From: a virus
Taxonomy: Duplodnaviria; Caudoviricetes
Virus record (IMG/VR): IMGVR_UViG_3300028048_000089
Location: 51,329 to 115,328 of that record
Reading direction: 5' to 3' (one strand)
DNA length: 64,000 nt
How positions within the stretch are numbered: position 1 is the stretch's first letter; each line of letters begins with the position of its first letter. The position numbers and the translations under genes were made by a program. A model generated the notes under the pieces. That model worked only from the letters and a program-made list of their open reading frames with translations. It searched no databases and was not told where the DNA came from. This document shows positions 4,472-63,911 of this stretch, in pieces.

Positions 4472-6877
4472 TTATGAAACACTGCTAGTGCCATTTAATA
4501 TAGCTAATGCTTCTGCTTTTGTATATACACCGCTTAAAGTTCTATTACTTATTATTATAGTTGATGCATATAAACTACTTGCATGAAAAGAAGCAAAACT
4601 ATTTGTACTTACCCAATTTTGAGTTGCTATTTCCTCACCATCATAATAAGCACCACCACCACTAGTATCAATATAAAGAGGTCCACCACCAGTAAGTAAA
4701 TTTACATCACCATCATAGAAATTAAACCCTTGGAAATTTGTACCAGCTAATAAAAGCCCAATATTATTTCCATATATATCTTCTGCATAAAAACTATTTG
4801 TTCCAAGATTAACATCTTTTGAAGCACCAGAATATGGAACATAATTCTCTGCTATACTAGAAGAAGTAGCATATTCAGATAAATTCATATTAATGACAGA
4901 ACTATTACTAGCATTAGCTGTAAATGTACCGATAGTAGAACTATTTAATTGAATTGTTAATGTAGCATCATTAATTTGATTAACAGTTGCCACTTCATTA
5001 CCATTATAAGTAAATTGGCCTACTGTTGTTAGAGCAATACCTGACCTACCATATTTACTAGTATTATTTATTTCAAAATACCCTGCAGTACCAATACCAA
5101 ATGTTGTATATTCACCATCCCAATATAAATTAGCACCATCATTAGTATCTCCAATATAAACATTAGAAGTATTTACTTCATCAGCATAAATAGCAAAGAA
5201 TGGATTACTTCTATTACCAAGCATAGCATTATTTACACTTGGAATAATATTACCATAAAGACTTGTTGTGCCTGAAAGTAGAATATAATTATATAAGTCC
5301 GATTGTAATGCTAATACACCAGATTGACTTGGTAAAATAACCGATGCATTACTTGAGGTTGTAGAATTTGGTCCAAGAGTTGTGTAATGTTGGTTACTTC
5401 CATCACCTGTATAAAATAATATATGAGTAGATGAAGAAGATAAGCCTAAGTTAATAGCTTTATCAAAATCAACAAAACCAGTTGCATGAAGCATTCCAGT
5501 TGTTAATTTTTTATTACCTAAATCAACAGCTTTTGTTGCACCACTATAAGGTACATAATTTGAATATAAATCTTTAATTACACCATAAGTGCTAGAAGTA
5601 GCATATGGAACATGAATTTCACTTACATTAGAACTAGATGCAATACTTAAACCACTATTAAATCTTGGTTCATGGTAATAGTTTGACATAGCTATTTTAG
5701 AGTAATAATAATTATTACTACCTAAGTTATATACTTTTGCATATAATTCTTTATTAAATTCAACAAAATCTGGTGTGTATTCTGTTGCTGAAGATAAAAC
5801 TGAATAAGTTCTATTTATAAGGTCTTTTGCTAAGTTATAATAATCGCTATCAAATTTATAATTAGAATCAGGTCCAAATATCGGAGTATTGTTTAAATAT
5901 TTACCATAAATAGAGGTATTATAACCAACATCGGTATCTCCTAATTCTAATTGGTTTTCATCAGCATAATATTGAGGTGAAACAGCAATAGGAATTAAAT
6001 CCCTTGTACTTATAGTTAAAACCCCATTTTCATCTTTAAATCTAAAAGCATAGAAATAAGTATAAACTGTAGCTAAATAAAGATAATAATCAAACCCATC
6101 CATATGGACTATTTCTACTGGATAGCATTCTAAATCAAGTTCACTAAAGAATGGACCTCTAGGAATATCAATTTTAGTATCCATGGCGATAACAATGTCT
6201 CTAAAATCAGATGTTAATGTATATACTTCACCCTCAACACCTGCAACATCCTCATTTGAGAATGTATGAATTGACATCTTTTTATTTAAAATATTTTGTA
6301 AATCAGTTTGATTACTTAAAGTACCTTGAATATCTCCCCAATTAACTGAAGCAGGACTATAAACAATAGGATTACCAGTATTTGGAGTTAATGTTAAATT
6401 ATTGCCAGAGACAGAAGCACTAACAAGATAATTGTCAGGTTCACCACCACCTCCACCAGACGCACTGATGACATTATTTTCAATTGTGATATTATTACCA
6501 GGAATTAATGTATCTTGCTTAGAATCAAATTTTCTAAATGCACTTAAAATTTCGGAGTAATCAACATCTCCAATAGTTGTATTCTTAGGTAATCTAGCAC
6601 TATTTTGTACATCAAGAGATTCTAAATTAGCATGACCTCTTGGTTCATTTTCATTTAAAGATAATTTACCTAAAATAACAACTTTCTCTGCTTGATGCTC
6701 TTCAAAGCCAACATAAACAACATCTCCTACTCTATATTCTTCAGAGATTGCTGGATTATCTGAAAGAGTTGCTATAATTTTACCTGTCCTAATACCTGCA
6801 GACTCTAAATAAGGCACTCTAACAGCATAAGTATTTGAATTGATTATTCTTTCTAAAATAATTGCTTTTGTAATCAT
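4472..6877 (-). CDS. Baseplate central spike (gp5/gpV-like N-terminus) with a long fibre-like C-terminal extension
   Basis: N-terminal YAVRVP...YRVGDVVYVGFE...VVILGKL resembles the gp5/gpV OB-fold. The rest has fibre-type segments (KQDTLIPGNNITIENNVISA, WGDIQGTLSNQTDL, two YVPYSGA repeats). It follows the hub gene. Confidence 0.7.
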   Translation of the reverse strand: MITKAIILERIINSNTYAVRVPYLESAGIRTGKIIATLSDNPAISEEYRVGDVVYVGFEEHQAEKVVILGKLSLNENEPRGHANLESLDVQNSARLPKNTTIGDVDYSEILSAFRKFDSKQDTLIPGNNITIENNVISASGGGGGEPDNYLVSASVSGNNLTLTPNTGNPIVYSPASVNWGDIQGTLSNQTDLQNILNKKMSIHTFSNEDVAGVEGEVYTLTSDFRDIVIAMDTKIDIPRGPFFSELDLECYPVEIVHMDGFDYYLYLATVYTYFYAFRFKDENGVLTISTRDLIPIAVSPQYYADENQLELGDTDVGYNTSIYGKYLNNTPIFGPDSNYKFDSDYYNLAKDLINRTYSVLSSATEYTPDFVEFNKELYAKVYNLGSNNYYYSKIAMSNYYHEPRFNSGLSIASSSNVSEIHVPYATSSTYGVIKDLYSNYVPYSGATKAVDLGNKKLTTGMLHATGFVDFDKAINLGLSSSSTHILFYTGDGSNQHYTTLGPNSTTSSNASVILPSQSGVLALQSDLYNYILLSGTTSLYGNIIPSVNNAMLGNRSNPFFAIYADEVNTSNVYIGDTNDGANLYWDGEYTTFGIGTAGYFEINNTSKYGRSGIALTTVGQFTYNGNEVATVNQINDATLTIQLNSSTIGTFTANASNSSVINMNLSEYATSSSIAENYVPYSGASKDVNLGTNSFYAEDIYGNNIGLLLAGTNFQGFNFYDGDVNLLTGGGPLYIDTSGGGAYYDGEEIATQNWVSTNSFASFHASSLYASTIIISNRTLSGVYTKAEALAILNGTSSVS

Positions 6878-6886
6878 TCAACTCTC

Positions 6887-8167
6887 CTAGATAAGTTCAT
6901 CTAAGTCTTCTGCTTTATCAACTCTTAAAAGACTTAAAGTGGTTCTAAAACCATCATAGCCAACATTATCAACTTGCTTTGTAACAACATATAGACCAGA
7001 ACTAATATGTCTTCTTCCATAGAAATATACATTAAGTCTAATATGTGTCATAAGAATTGCAGGTCTTAATAAACCTTTAATAGTAATTTTTGCTTTAATT
7101 GGAAATTCTGTTACTTTTGTCCACCAACTCTTTTCTGCCTCAGTAGCAACTCTATAAGCATTTGAACTTCCTAAAATTGGTGCATATACTTCTTCTAATT
7201 CACCTCTATCATTAATTCTTTGTACATATTGGTCTGTATTTAATTTTTCATAGAAATTATAGAAAATTGTATAACCTTCATCATCTTCAACATCAAAACT
7301 TGTAACAATGTTTTGAGAAGGATAACCAATATCTAATTCATATGCTAAAGGCATATTTTTTGCATGTGTAACATAAACAATCTTAAAGAATGGTCCTTTA
7401 AATTTTCCACTAACATCATCTTCACATACTAATGAATACATACCATCTTTTGTCAAACTAGAAGATTTTGATGCCTTCATGATATTAACTAAGTATAATA
7501 AGTACTCAATTGGTGAAATATTTGTTCTTGCTTCAACATCAACTTCAACATCAGTTTCAGGAATAAGACCTTCTTGTTCAACTAAACTTTTATCACTCAT
7601 TCCATAAAAAACTTCTTGAAGTCCATAAGAACTATCATATAATAATTTTTTAATTAATGCACTTGCTTTATGTCTACCAACCCAGTCAGTACTTGTGAAA
7701 CTAAAAGCACCAACACTTAATAATTTACCTGTACTTACAGCACTAACAACATAATCAATTTTAGAAGATGATGCTGTCATTCTTTGTCTAACTTTAAGAA
7801 TAATTGCTTCTTCATCTCTATAACAGAAAGTAGGTGCAGATAAATCACCATAACTAAATTTAATTTTTCTTGTTTTACTAACACTACTAAAAACTTTATA
7901 GAAGAAGTTAGGGTCATCTGCTTCTGTCACAGGATAAGATAAATTTAAAGTATATTTATTGACTACACCATTAATCTTTTCAATTGTTAATGATTGAACA
8001 TAGTTTGGATATTTAATTTTATTGATTGTAAAAACACCACTAGCATCAAAACCATTAGTACTTACTTTATCATACACACCAAAAGTATATTTACCAATTG
8101 TGATTTTGATAAATGGAGTTTCAACTCTACTTGTATTTGATAATAAGTTAATTGGTTTTGTTGCCAT
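6887..8167 (-). CDS. Baseplate hub protein (T4 gp27 / late control D-like)
   Basis: 426 aa; C-terminal SGLYVVTKQVDNVGYDGFRTTLSLLR is typical of hub proteins; lies between LysM-like and spike genes. Confidence 0.7.
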   Translation of the reverse strand: MATKPINLLSNTSRVETPFIKITIGKYTFGVYDKVSTNGFDASGVFTINKIKYPNYVQSLTIEKINGVVNKYTLNLSYPVTEADDPNFFYKVFSSVSKTRKIKFSYGDLSAPTFCYRDEEAIILKVRQRMTASSSKIDYVVSAVSTGKLLSVGAFSFTSTDWVGRHKASALIKKLLYDSSYGLQEVFYGMSDKSLVEQEGLIPETDVEVDVEARTNISPIEYLLYLVNIMKASKSSSLTKDGMYSLVCEDDVSGKFKGPFFKIVYVTHAKNMPLAYELDIGYPSQNIVTSFDVEDDEGYTIFYNFYEKLNTDQYVQRINDRGELEEVYAPILGSSNAYRVATEAEKSWWTKVTEFPIKAKITIKGLLRPAILMTHIRLNVYFYGRRHISSGLYVVTKQVDNVGYDGFRTTLSLLRVDKAEDLDELI

Positions 8168-23414: not shown

Positions 23415-23490
23415 TGGTTACAGGGGGAGGACTTGAACCTCCGACCTCCAGGTTATGAGCCTGGTAAGCTACCTCTGCTATCACCCTGCG
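23415..23490 (-). tRNA. tRNA-Met(CAT), initiator type
   Basis: CGCAGGG...CCAGG-CTCATAA-CCTGG...GGAGG-TTCAAGT-CCTCC-CCCTGTA-A-CCA; 76 nt; C1xA72 mismatch; encoded CCA. Confidence 0.95.
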
Positions 23491-51208: not shown

Positions 51209-51462
51209 TTTATTAGTCCTTTCAATAGATTTTTATTATATAAATCATTACAATCATAAACTTTGTTATTTTCTAACCAACCAGAAGATTTAAGTTTTTC
51301 TACCTCACTATCTCCAAGCCAATGTCTAACAATTAGATTATTATCAGCTGTAACATAACTAACATAGTTATCATTACTTGATTTACCGATAGCAACTAAT
51401 TTTAATTTATTATGTCTTCTAAAATTTGCCCAATCAGGACCTTGCAATCTTTTAATTATCAT
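51205..51462 (-). CDS. Hypothetical protein
   Basis: 85-aa coupled ORF. Confidence 0.5.
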   Translation of the reverse strand: MIIKRLQGPDWANFRRHNKLKLVAIGKSSNDNYVSYVTADNNLIVRHWLGDSEVEKLKSSGWLENNKVYDCNDLYNKNLLKGLIK

Positions 51463-60434: not shown

Positions 60435-62226
60435 CTACATTGGATATAGAATATCATCATATGAACTGCTTACATTTTCATCTAAGTCTTTTGAACTAAA
60501 CCAGTCTCCCATTTTCTTTAATTCATTTTCAAGGTCAACGGTTATTTGTTTATGTATTGAGGTTTGTTTTTCATTAGAGTACAAAGTGAGTTCAGCATCT
60601 TCTCCATAATCATGAGCATACTCTTCTGCATGGCCACTTGCATTATAGATAGCACCACAAACGGCGTCGGCTTGGTCCTTACTACCTCTTTTACCACCAT
60701 CCGGGTGGTCAATCTTTCCGTTATTATTGTTAATCTCTAATTGTACTAATTCAGTATATAATAATTCTGTTTTATATAAAGAAAGTCTACCTTCATAAAT
60801 AACATTTTTAAGATATTGGTAAGGTCTACAAATTCCACCTTGTTCACCGGGAATTGATTCAACTCTATCAACTGATAAGATTTTACAATCAAACCCCTCA
60901 CCTGTTAAAATTTGTTGTAAGTCTGCAGATTGATAAGTATCGGTTGTAATACCCTTAACATTAAACCCTACTTTTCTTAACCATCTAACAAAGTTTCTAT
61001 TCTTTTCAAATGATATTTGCCTACCTGTTGGTGCTTGTATAGAAGTACTAAATGCAAGTTTAAACATTAAGTCTTTACCAGGGTTACCATCGCTTGTAGG
61101 TTTCTTACCAACAATCCATACACCAGCAATACCGGTTTTGTCTTTACTTTTAGACATATCTAGGTGTACATATAAAGGTTTATTCATGTATTCTTTATCT
61201 AGAACATCACCATTAAACCAATCATAGTATTGAGCAGTATCATCGGGGGCATCACCACAACTAATAATATCAGGAAGTGGGTTTTGTCTTTTAGCATCTA
61301 CAATATCAGATACTCTACTTGCGGATAAGAATTTATTAGAAGAAAAACTAGAGATACCTGCATAGTCACAAAGTACTCTTTCAAGACCAGTCTTAGCATC
61401 TGCTTCAAAATCTATAGGTATTTCTATTAATGTATAACCTTTTTCTCTATAGAATTCTAAGTTATCATAATCTTTTCTAGGAATAACCAGGTTATCTAGG
61501 AACTTATTACCTAAACCTACCCAGAATTTTTCTTTACTATATGTACCTTCAGGTTTAACTTTCCAAACAGGTTCATCAATAATTTTAACATTATCCCCTT
61601 CAGTTTCGGATAACTCTTTAATATAAGATTCCATAAATGATTGTTCACTTCTCTTAGAAGAAGCAACAACTAATAATGTTGGATTCTTACCCTTATAGAT
61701 AAATCTTGTCTTCATACCACCTTTAGCGGTATCAATCATATCTTTTGCTTTTTTCTTTTGAATCTCAACATCTTGATTCTTTAAAAAACTACTTATATAT
61801 TTCTATATTTAGACTATCTCTTAATCTTATATTGTTTTGTCCTTTATAAGACCCTTTGCACTTCAACTAAATCATTTCATATTTAGTTTACTCTACTCAC
61901 TTGTTCTAATAAGTATTTCTCTTATTATATGTTTTCGTTAGTCGTTACACCTTACATTTAAGTCTTGGCACGGTATTGAAGTTAATCGTTCACCGTTAGC
62001 ACGAATAGTATTCATACACCCTATATTTATAGGTTCACAAAGTTTTTCATATACATTTCTGCATAAGGAGACCAGTTTAGTTAATCTCATCAAAGAAGCA
62101 ATTATGAGAACACACACAATTACTCTTAGTTTTTATTAAAAAATTATTGTAGGGATAAGCATCAATAACATCATAGTACTGTTTAGGTATATCTAGTGTA
62201 TGATGTGTAATACTTTTTATCTTCAT
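60435..62226 (-). CDS. terL: Terminase large subunit, C-terminal gene (IntC + Walker B + nuclease); spliced join(62084..62226, 60435..61791)
   Basis: ATG 62226 gives MKIKSI...YYDV...NNF...CSHN/CFFDE. Removing the intron gives ...DEISFLKNQDVEIQKKKAKDMIDTAKGG, in frame with ORF 60435..61739 (nuclease motifs VHLDMS, KDQADA). Spliced length is 1500 nt. Confidence 0.9.
61792..62083 (-). mobile_element. Group I self-splicing intron (292 nt, no ORF) in terL
   Basis: P TGCTAACGGTGAA, Q AATACCGTGCC, R GTAACGACTA, S AAGAGATAGTCT; P1 GAGAT/GTCTC with U-G at the 5' splice site; P10 AAACTG/TAGTTT; terminal G at 61792; excision restores the reading frame. Confidence 0.92.
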
Positions 62227-63284
62227 ACCATAAGTTTCCTCCCCTTAACAAAACCTTCTGGGCATTTTTCACAATAAATTGCTATTTTACCATTATTGTA
62301 CCAATGATAGTTCTTAGGTAAATTTGATTTCATCTTAGATTTAATTCTACCCTTAATAAAGCCTTCAGGAACCATTTCATTAGGATGTAATCTTATTTCT
62401 CTTATTCCATTATTATAAATTATTCTACCCCTATTCTTTTCTTCAACAATTTTATGAGATTTTTTTAAATGTTGAAGATGAATATCAGACTTCTTTTTAC
62501 CTTTTAATGCTTTTGATACTTTTTCACCGAAGTTAGCTGGTTTCTTTTTACCAGTTAATATGCTTGAAATTTTTCTTTTAAATTCATCATTTCTAATTTT
62601 ACCTTTATTGCCTATTGATATCTGTTTTCGCGTTTCTTCTGATACTTCTTTATGGTATCTACCATTTTTTTCACCTTTATGTAATTCAGACCACTTTTCT
62701 GTATCATTTAATGAATTACCGCCTTGACCACCTTTATGTATATTATAACCAAATGCTTTATCTTGTGCTTTGTAAAGTTTTATATACAACTTCTCAAGTT
62801 CATTGAGTTCTTCTCTTGAATAGCCAAAACAAATTATTTCTCTTGTAATTACACCTTTTCCATATTTTTTTAGGTCTTCTTTCCATAATTTACCACTACC
62901 ATAGTAATGTATATCAAACTCAGACTTCTCTCGCTTCCCTATATAAACTCTATTTGTCTTAGTATTTACAAATTTATATATGTAACCAAATGGTTTTATA
63001 TTTTCATCAAATAGTTCATCATCTTCAGTTAAATCTTTAGCCATTTTATATGTACCATTCTTAAGCATGAATCTATGTGTTGGGGTACATTTAATAATAG
63101 AGCCGTCTTCAAGTTCAATTTGATATTCTTCATTTGTTTTTAAAGTTGGCTTTACTGTACAATGCTCACTAATGACCTCTTCACCTTGTTCATCAATGGA
63201 TATAACTTGAATATCTTTATCTACTAATGTATCCAATCTCTTAAGACCTTCTGTTGTTTTAATCATTGTCTCACCATCAAGACA
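62101..63284 (-). mobile_element. Split intein in terL: IntN fused to a GIY-YIG endonuclease (63284-62223) plus a separate 42-aa IntC (62226-62101)
   Basis: Block A CLDGETMI, block B IKCTPTHRF, GIY-YIG GYIYKF...VYIGK, then a stop. An overlapping ATGA restart encodes blocks F/G (YYDV...NF...SHN-C). Confidence 0.88.
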
Positions 63285-63911
63285 AAAGAAAATTGGACGA
63301 CCAATAACATCATCACTTTGAGAACCTATAATCAATTCTAAAGGGTCAGGAGGGTTCCAATATGGATTATTATTTCGTTGAGTCATTTTGCCCTTATTCA
63401 TAAACCAAGGGCTTTTTTGAATTGTCTTTTGAAACTTATCTGTTGCAATTGCTTCTGCTAAGTCTAACTTAATATTCATAAATGCAAAAGCAATCTTTTC
63501 TGTATTCTTAATATGATAATGTTCTAGAGGGTCTTTAAGACACATAACTCTATACATTAAATATGGACAAATAACACCACAAGCAATTTCAGATTTACCA
63601 ATGCCTCTAGCACCAGATTCTAATAATGTGTCATAGTCAGTAGCAATATTTGAAGGAAAAATATCTTTTAATTCTTTAAGCCAAAATGGATAAAGTTTAA
63701 GTTTACCTGAACCATCTTTCCAAGCATTTCCTAAATATTTATCATCATTTAAAAAGGTTTCAATGTCAACAGGTATTTCTTTATAATCTGCATAAAGCAA
63801 CTCCGCATATGTTCTAGAGGAGCCATCTTTAGCAAATTCTTTTAATATCTTTAGAACAGTATCTTTTTGCTGTTCATTTAAATTCTTTAGTAACTCTTTT
63901 GAATCGTCCAT
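62223..63911 (-). CDS. terL: Terminase large subunit, N-terminal gene (ATPase N-part + IntN + GIY-YIG)
   Basis: LYPFW, Walker A ESGARGIGKS, then VIGRPIFF/CLDG intein junction after residue 209. Confidence 0.92.
   Translation of the reverse strand: MDDSKELLKNLNEQQKDTVLKILKEFAKDGSSRTYAELLYADYKEIPVDIETFLNDDKYLGNAWKDGSGKLKLYPFWLKELKDIFPSNIATDYDTLLESGARGIGKSEIACGVICPYLMYRVMCLKDPLEHYHIKNTEKIAFAFMNIKLDLAEAIATDKFQKTIQKSPWFMNKGKMTQRNNNPYWNPPDPLELIIGSQSDDVIGRPIFFCLDGETMIKTTEGLKRLDTLVDKDIQVISIDEQGEEVISEHCTVKPTLKTNEEYQIELEDGSIIKCTPTHRFMLKNGTYKMAKDLTEDDELFDENIKPFGYIYKFVNTKTNRVYIGKREKSEFDIHYYGSGKLWKEDLKKYGKGVITREIICFGYSREELNELEKLYIKLYKAQDKAFGYNIHKGGQGGNSLNDTEKWSELHKGEKNGRYHKEVSEETRKQISIGNKGKIRNDEFKRKISSILTGKKKPANFGEKVSKALKGKKKSDIHLQHLKKSHKIVEEKNRGRIIYNNGIREIRLHPNEMVPEGFIKGRIKSKMKSNLPKNYHWYNNGKIAIYCEKCPEGFVKGRKLMV

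Follow-up and report, generated by a model that had tools for sequence, protein, structure and literature searches.

A Predicted Split Intein and Group I Intron Interrupt the Walker B Motif of a Phage Large Terminase Gene

How can a phage make an intact large terminase subunit (TerL) from a gene whose Walker B motif is interrupted twice, at sites only 17 nt apart? The locus that raises this question, a terL gene of a bovine-gut phage at 60435..63911, lies in a 64,000-nucleotide stretch of viral DNA (Duplodnaviria; Caudoviricetes) corresponding to positions 51,329 to 115,328 of IMG/VR record IMGVR_UViG_3300028048_000089. We refer to this whole stretch as the window, and all positions without a contig name are those of the window. 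Very probably, one interruption is a split intein and the other a group I intron, so that protein splicing and RNA splicing would both be needed to produce a TerL of 666 aa. An initial annotation of the locus had described the same two elements and the same double requirement. Its coordinates and counts were correct to the base when re-read against the sequence, and its placing of both interruptions within Walker B, with a TerL of ~666 aa that needs both removed, agrees with the comparison with an uninterrupted homologue described below. The parts of the locus, in the order in which they would be transcribed, are as follows, where IntN and IntC denote the N- and C-terminal halves of the intein.

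63285..63911, minus strand: TerL N-extein, residues 1-209, with Walker A (GARGIGKS); its last residues, IGRPIFF, make up the opening half of the Walker B strand
62997..63284, minus strand: putative IntN, ~96 aa, with Cys1 (CLDGET) and block B TPTH
62223..62996, minus strand: predicted GIY-YIG + NUMOD3 homing-endonuclease domain, in frame with IntN; stop codon TGA at 62225-62223
62238..62242, minus strand: GGAGG, a possible Shine-Dalgarno-like site, 11 nt to the IntC ATG, judged from the sequence only
62101..62226, minus strand: putative IntC, 42 aa, ending ...VCSHN, with its own ATG, which overlaps the stop of the preceding frame as ATGA
62084..62100, minus strand: C-extein stub, 17 nt, the 3' end of the upstream exon; TGC TTC TTT GAT GAG AT = C F F D E I-, with the +1 Cys and the Walker B D-E
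61792..62083, minus strand: predicted ORF-less group I intron, 292 nt, IA-like, with P7.1/P7.2
60435..61791, minus strand: terL exon 2, the third base of the Ile codon, 451 codons (SFLKNQDVE...PM) and a stop; encodes the remainder of the ATPase domain together with the nuclease domain

TerL and Its Two Junctions

The first open reading frame (ORF1; 63911..62223, minus strand, 562 aa) runs from the N-terminal part of TerL through IntN into a GYIY...VYIG domain with NUMOD3 repeats from about residue 306. A second ORF of 49 codons starts at the ATG at 62226 and reads MKIKSITHH...VCSHN and then CFFDEIN, where it is ended by an in-frame TAA (62079-62077) two codons inside the intron. Removal of the intron joins GAGAT to TAGTTT, and the frame resumes with SFLKNQDVE... 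and continues to the stop at 60435, so that the rebuilt TerL would contain 209 + 6 + 451 = 666 aa.

Both junctions are fixed by the viral contig L007, the closest relative of the exteins, which encodes an uninterrupted TerL of 672 aa that includes IGRPIYFAFFDEISFLKNQDVE. It reads ...IGRPIYF AFFDEI SFLKNQDVE..., with no gap at the intein site or the intron site, and neither interruption of terL is therefore a chance reading. The window TerL is identical to that of L007 at 80% of positions in the N part and 67% in the C part. A structural model of the L007 protein (predicted local distance difference test score, pLDDT, 79.5) matched solved large terminases, i.e., those of HK97 (E = 2e-14) and T4 (gp17; E = 1.6e-11), and also that of Sf6. 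Among 30 uninterrupted homologues G101, G106, K107, S108, D214 and E215 were invariant, and in the model D214/E215 close a beta strand, which is the signature of Walker B (hhhhDE). Because the aligned D-E pair lies at the end of this strand, the intein is placed inside the Walker B strand, and the intron splits the Ile codon that follows D-E.

When exon 2 was compared by tblastn with annotated large terminases, alignments started from query residue 2, with E values down to 6e-66. The locus thus has the TerL fold, Walker A and Walker B, and an adjoining portal gene (60387-58513), which is next after terL; every catalytic motif, whether of TerL or of its intein, is intact. The whole TerL gave no sequence match in the PDB and none in Pfam.

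The Split Intein and the Intron

All residues of a class-1 intein are present: Cys1 (CLDGET), TPTH (TxxH), the terminal HN and the +1 Cys (SHN followed by C). IntN scored 38.6 bits against Pfam Intein_splicing (cut-off 35.8) and matched the NrdJ-1, Npu/Ssp DnaE and gp41-1 inteins in the PDB by sequence (E = 2e-4 to 4e-3); a PDB sequence search with IntC gave no match. These features point to a naturally split class-1 intein that interrupts Walker B of terL and that would splice in trans. Modeling supports association of the two halves. A complex of IntN and IntC scored 0.61 against 0.01 for the best control; among 78 solved complexes 51 reached this mark, as did 2 among 108 mismatched pairs. 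Between runs, contacts agreed to 94% or more, and partner pLDDT was at least 71. Since split-intein complexes have already been solved, this pass may in part reflect those structures, and it speaks for likeness rather than proving binding.

Each intein half is encoded by an ORF of its own with a separate start codon, and the split is not a sequencing artefact. The initial annotation had named a one-base indel at 62223-62226, which would fuse the frames into an ordinary cis-intein, as something that would refute its reading. There was no indel at these positions in DNA contigs of two other bovine-gut samples (runs X2 and X3, from another study). The make-up of TerL-N, IntN and GIY-YIG/NUMOD3, with the same end point, is shared by >100 protein clusters of ~560 aa, with identities as low as 35%, and no fused cis-intein form was found among longer proteins, none of which covers the endonuclease part. 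Moreover, the cultured phages HSE3, SP-15 and LIS04 and the viral contigs L065-L068 and L070 have homologous IntC ORFs that start with MK(V/I) at the equivalent residue.

The domain that follows IntN resembles homing endonucleases. It matched phrog_314 ("homing endonuclease", E = 1.9e-34) and phrog_5123 ("GIY-YIG motif", E = 2.7e-4), and against Pfam it scored 20.9 bits with NUMOD3 (cut-off 20.4), 14.5 bits with GIY-YIG and 16.3 bits with SegE_GIY-YIG, the latter two being below their cut-offs. The GYIY...VYIG motif is visible in the sequence, and homologues carry PF19835 or PF01541; a PDB sequence search gave no match. There is no stop codon between IntN and the endonuclease, and this fusion is kept in the >100 clusters.

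As to the second interruption, precise excision of the intron was seen in RNA, which is good evidence, if not final. A 184-nt contig from the bovine-gut metatranscriptome run X10 joins 61698-61789 to 62082-62173 without a mismatch. It skips 292 nt with two ambiguous letters at the joint, i.e., it corresponds to removal of 61792-62083, and thus bears out the loss of 292 nt that the initial annotation had predicted. The contig is identical to the window strain on both flanks, one of which is IntC itself. DNA contigs of runs X2 and X3 read through the intron, and no exon-exon joint was found in these two DNA runs. Among the RNA runs the interior of the window-strain intron had no contig, and X20 covered little of it; these uncovered parts count neither way.

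The 292-nt insert has the features of a group I intron with an IA-type architecture, and its self-splicing chemistry is predicted from these. In P1 the 5' exon sequence GAGAU pairs with GUCUC, with a U·G pair at the splice site, and in P10 the intron sequence AAACUG pairs with UAGUUU of the 3' exon; the last base of the intron, G292, is the omega-G at 61792. The internal guide sequence is 62078-62068, and P7 is formed by 61943-61939 with 61816-61812. Six introns are now recognized at this site (see below), and across all of them P1 and P10 were 100% paired and P7 (GACUA/UAGUC) was invariant, whereas compensatory changes were seen in eight of the nine pairs of P8, all seven of P7.1 and six of the eight of P7.2. 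P3 (CUUUGUG/UGCAAAG) covaries with L068 and L012. P7.1 and P7.2 come after the 5' strand of P7 and before the 3' strand of P3, an arrangement shared with phage introns of the IA type; this placing follows the Rfam alignment of L055. For P4 (ACGGU/ACCGU) and P6 the assignment was made solely by visual inspection. An alternative P3 at UUCGU/ACGAA beside P7 was dropped: relatives do not conserve it, and in the Rfam alignment of L055 the P3' strand follows P7.2. A single-sequence minimum free energy fold, which paired the 5' part of the intron with the 3' exon, was disregarded.

For P1, P2, P3, P7, P7.1, P7.2, P8 and P10 on the six same-site introns, 88% of cells were paired, compared with ~41% after sliding; changes on both sides were seen in 29 of 53 pairs, which was matched by none of 500 shuffles. 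The intron core AACGACUA.CGAAAACAUA ... AAGUGAGUAGAGUA was found in 55 viral contigs, members of which reach 96-100 bits with the Rfam model; RNAalifold on 34 sequences recovered P7, P7.1, P7.2 and P8, with compensatory changes in 19 of 25 pairs. Finally, a covariance model (R1) built without the window intron scored it at 99.1 bits (E about 1e-20, a rough value), and it was the sole match in the window and in the entire 115-kb record. With Rfam Intron_gpI (RF00028), a 451-nt scan gave a partial match that covers P8-J8/7-P7-P9, and a scan of 4 kb at E ≤ 1 gave none; nor did Rfam match at the SP-15, HSE3, LIS04 or L007 loci. The sole Rfam match above gathering score in the window was a tRNA (23422-23487, minus strand; 39.4 bits).

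Some variation of the intron may be recorded here. Two hairpins, CCUAU.../...AUAGG and GUAUGAAU-ACU-AUUCGUGC, lie at 62034-61999 (intron positions 50-85) between P3 and J3/4-P4, an unusual place for a peripheral insertion. They are common to L068 and the L012/L023 group, with compensatory changes, and are missing from the other same-site introns. The introns of L065, L066, L067 and L070 end a few bases past P7 (AGUCUACAG and similar) without a P9 hairpin, which is present in the window intron and in L068, so that two structural subtypes occur at one insertion site. Beyond this site, a nucleotide search of the phage collection returned only an intron of the megaphage Lak-A2 of Prevotella (L009, MK250019; 2416-2671), with 78% identity over 81 nt of the core; its full-length Rfam match was weak, at 18.5 bits.

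In the mechanism that we propose, one transcript would run through ORF1, IntC, the intron and exon 2, and the intron would excise itself from this mRNA, excision as such having been seen in RNA. Translation would then give two proteins, TerL(1-209)-IntN-endonuclease and IntC-CFFDEI-SFLK...TerL-C. Association of IntN with IntC would allow trans-splicing, in which both intein halves, and the endonuclease with them, are set free and ...IGRPIFF becomes joined to CFFDEISFLK... (junction peptide IGRPIFFCFFDEISFLK), which would rebuild Walker B. Unspliced mRNA would yield only a 49-aa IntC-CFFDEIN peptide; this would carry a competent IntC and could form a dead-end product, TerL(1-209)-CFFDEIN. The initial annotation had made the function of IntC dependent on intron splicing. 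This is imprecise: the whole of IntC, and the +1 Cys as well, is encoded upstream of the intron, and so it is the C-extein alone that depends on RNA splicing.

Several observations weigh against this interpretation. The RNA evidence is one contig (depth 4.45) from one run, and because RNA libraries may include DNA, its source could conceivably be a DNA variant that has the intein, lacks the intron and is identical in both flanks. The partial RF00028 match, at 18.8 bits, missed the gathering score of 50 bits, P5 is weak, and the two extra hairpins stand between P3 and P4. On the protein side, the bulky endonuclease at the C terminus of IntN might slow trans-splicing.

Distribution and Origin of the Paired Elements

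The intron is present at this site in six loci, i.e., the window, L065, L066 (= L069), L067, L068 and L070, so that the intein and intron occur together in five phage contigs besides the window. Each of the five has TerL-N-IntN-endonuclease, an IntC ORF ending SHN followed by CFFDEI, an intron in the same phase and then SF(L/I)..., and their exteins are 45-70% identical to the window TerL. Pattern scans for the exon-intron junction added one locus each in viral and metagenome contigs, and no intron-only allele was found in either set. The contig P0005 appears to carry the intein without the intron, as a 504-aa gene for IntC-TerL-C directly after a homologue of ORF1. Most of the >2,000 TerLs of the family are uninterrupted.

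On a tree of N-exteins the empty-site L007 is sister to the window phage (support 98/98), L067 is next (90/93), and L007 is placed within element-bearing lineages. For IntN, endonuclease, IntC and intron the nearest relative of the window phage is L068 (63, 68, 69 and 81%), whereas the window N-extein is nearer to L067 and L007 (70 and 80%). A tree of IntN + endonuclease + IntC did not resolve the branching, so that the incongruence is not significant and co-transfer no more than possible.

Some of these contigs have further elements. L065, from wolf gut, carries a mini-intein in the nuclease domain (5640-7400; GRYG then CFTGDT...VFVHN then SKDAADA), which gives it two inteins and one intron. 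The ORF1 homologue of L070 (836-3589; 917 aa) includes an extra 340-aa intein at Walker A (GLGK then AQPLSS...THN then SEIA), upstream of the IntN-endonuclease part. That of L068 (3001-4815) translates only if TGA is read as Trp, suggesting a recoded phage, and the portal gene of L068 has precomputed Intein_splicing and HNH_3 matches.

That the elements come and go among close relatives fits mobile selfish elements, and the intein and intron are best read as such elements, stacked at a conserved homing target, rather than as a regulatory device. Taking this further, we tentatively consider it possible that the four parts (intein, endonuclease, IntC, intron) spread jointly as a single block, the ORF-less intron riding by co-conversion, a form of collaborative homing, with the GIY-YIG endonuclease of the intein or shielding the genome from it. 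Such a composite unit would refine the selfish-element reading without contradicting it. All six loci with the intron also hold the split intein and endonuclease, the scans gave no intron on its own, the sister allele in L007 has neither element, and all four insert parts are nearest to L068 although the N-extein is not; there are, moreover, documented cases of ORF-less introns that home in collaboration with free-standing endonucleases (PMC3984707, PMC2790892). However, the insert tree has no resolution and only six loci were sampled, the P0005 contig appears to have an intein without the intron, and the two structural subtypes at the site, with and without the P9 and P3-P4 hairpins, hint that introns were replaced independently of the intein. 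It seems a little more doubtful still that the intein-borne endonuclease drives homing of both elements while the IntC decoy ties TerL maturation to the efficiency of RNA splicing.

The initial annotation had also suggested that the double requirement could gate the timing of DNA packaging, delaying or tuning TerL, e.g., through an IntC decoy that consumes TerL-N-IntN. Retention of the arrangement in several diverged phages would suit such a gate, as would the stop two codons into the intron, which gives unspliced RNA a defined 49-aa product; translation and growth state are also known to affect the splicing of phage group I introns (PMC3984707). Early in-frame stops are, however, a common feature of such introns, linked to their folding (PMC3984707), most relatives, including the nearest, lack both elements, and there is no regulatory sign in the sequence. 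We regard the suggestion as improbable, and both the sporadic distribution and the empty-site sister L007 fit selfish elements better. Least likely is an artefact or decay, i.e., an assembly frameshift in an ordinary cis-intein, a dead terL, or a joined contig derived from an intron-less DNA variant: the window does come from a metagenome assembly, and the single RNA contig from a library that may contain DNA, but two other samples lack the indel, the ORF end is conserved in >100 clusters without a fused form, the catalytic motifs are all intact, and the joined contig matches the window strain on both sides, one side being IntC.

The locus would be a clean natural case, with RNA-level evidence from the field, of one catalytic motif rebuilt at both the RNA and the protein levels. 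Because the pair recurs in diverged gut phages and the nearest relative is without both, it offers a testable system for asking whether an intein endonuclease can mobilize a neighbouring intron. Fusions of IntN with an endonuclease emerge as a common and stable form of split intein, which bears on the origin of split inteins, and IntN/IntC pairs of the window type are candidate tools for protein ligation. There is also a lesson for annotation, in that gene callers overlook the 49-codon ORF and report terL in fragments.

Comparison with Known Systems

Fractured genes in which a homing-endonuclease gene lies between the halves of a split intein have been described, including one at a phage terminase locus (Dassa et al., 2009, PMC2677866). 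As there, both intein halves are found at one locus, with an endonuclease, in the window a predicted GIY-YIG/NUMOD one, between them, in a phage enzyme that handles DNA, and the lengths of IntN (~96 aa) and IntC (42 aa) are within the fractured-gene ranges of 88-105 and 33-54. Unlike the free-standing endonucleases of fractured genes, that of the window is fused in frame to IntN, and no free-standing endonuclease ORF lies between the intein halves. The terminase intein among the fractured genes has an unusual split point, with a C part of 122 residues, whereas the window intein is split at the canonical point. No adjacent intron was described for fractured genes, whereas the window locus has one.

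The Bacillus phages SP-15 (KT624200) and vB_BceM-HSE3 (MF418016) and the Listeria phage LIS04 (OQ999172) have a split intein at the same Walker B site. Their junctions read ...VF then C..., their IntC reads MKV…VVHN followed by C…LDE, and the C part of their TerL is 34-38% identical to that of the window; their records label the terL pieces as hypothetical or intein-region proteins. They differ from the window in that the IntN ORF stops right after IntN, being followed by an unrelated small ORF or by no endonuclease domain, and in having no intron beside IntC. SP-15 terL does contain a group I intron from the RNA family to which that of the window belongs, but ~60 codons upstream, in the N-extein, and bearing an ORF.

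Bacillus phage SP-15 (L006, 1-3866) in fact appears to carry three elements in terL. The first is an in-frame insert of ~373 aa near Walker A, inside SP15_022, and the second is the group I intron, which follows ...FFNITLD and holds SP15_023 ("holliday junction resolvase"); its core (L006:2491-2621) scored 51.8 bits with R1 and had no match in Rfam. The third is the split intein at Walker B. In Listeria phage LIS04 (L005, 2011-4134) the coding region of IntN is itself interrupted: TerL-N closes with ...SHGLGERKAG*, next comes an "endonuclease" ORF of 314 aa, and a 56-aa ORF supplies what remains of IntN. Neither an RNA model nor an Rfam match explains how this interrupted IntN would be rejoined.

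Gut phages are known to carry group I introns in core genes, terL among them; examples are the Jug phages, which are jumbo phages (PMC12880540), and the Zeta and Delta groups of crAss-like phages, where introns and inteins are dense (PMC7886860). There too, short ORF-less introns split terL and the genomes are crowded with inteins and endonucleases, and for the Jug phages splicing was likewise confirmed by metatranscriptome reads across exon junctions (PMC12880540). Unlike the window, neither report (PMC12880540, PMC7886860) has a split intein and an intron in one motif, or an exon consisting of IntC plus six residues, and our literature search found no report of either arrangement.

The relation between the intron and the endonuclease resembles collaborative homing, in which an ORF-less intron relies on a separate endonuclease (reviewed in PMC3984707; for T4 mobE and I-TevIII, PMC2790892). 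As in those cases, an intron with no endonuclease of its own adjoins the gene for an endonuclease directed at the same conserved stretch, although the target is putative here, and the window endonuclease belongs to an intein rather than being a free-standing gene.

The initial annotation had noted that split inteins in fractured phage genes and group I introns in terL were each already known, and had called their stacking unusual. The latter holds in that we found no earlier report of the pairing in one motif; it holds less well in that the pair is present in at least five other phage contigs, and that SP-15 combines a terL intron with a split intein. The kinds of element are thus known, and their tight pairing, intein with intron, in one motif is found in several phages.

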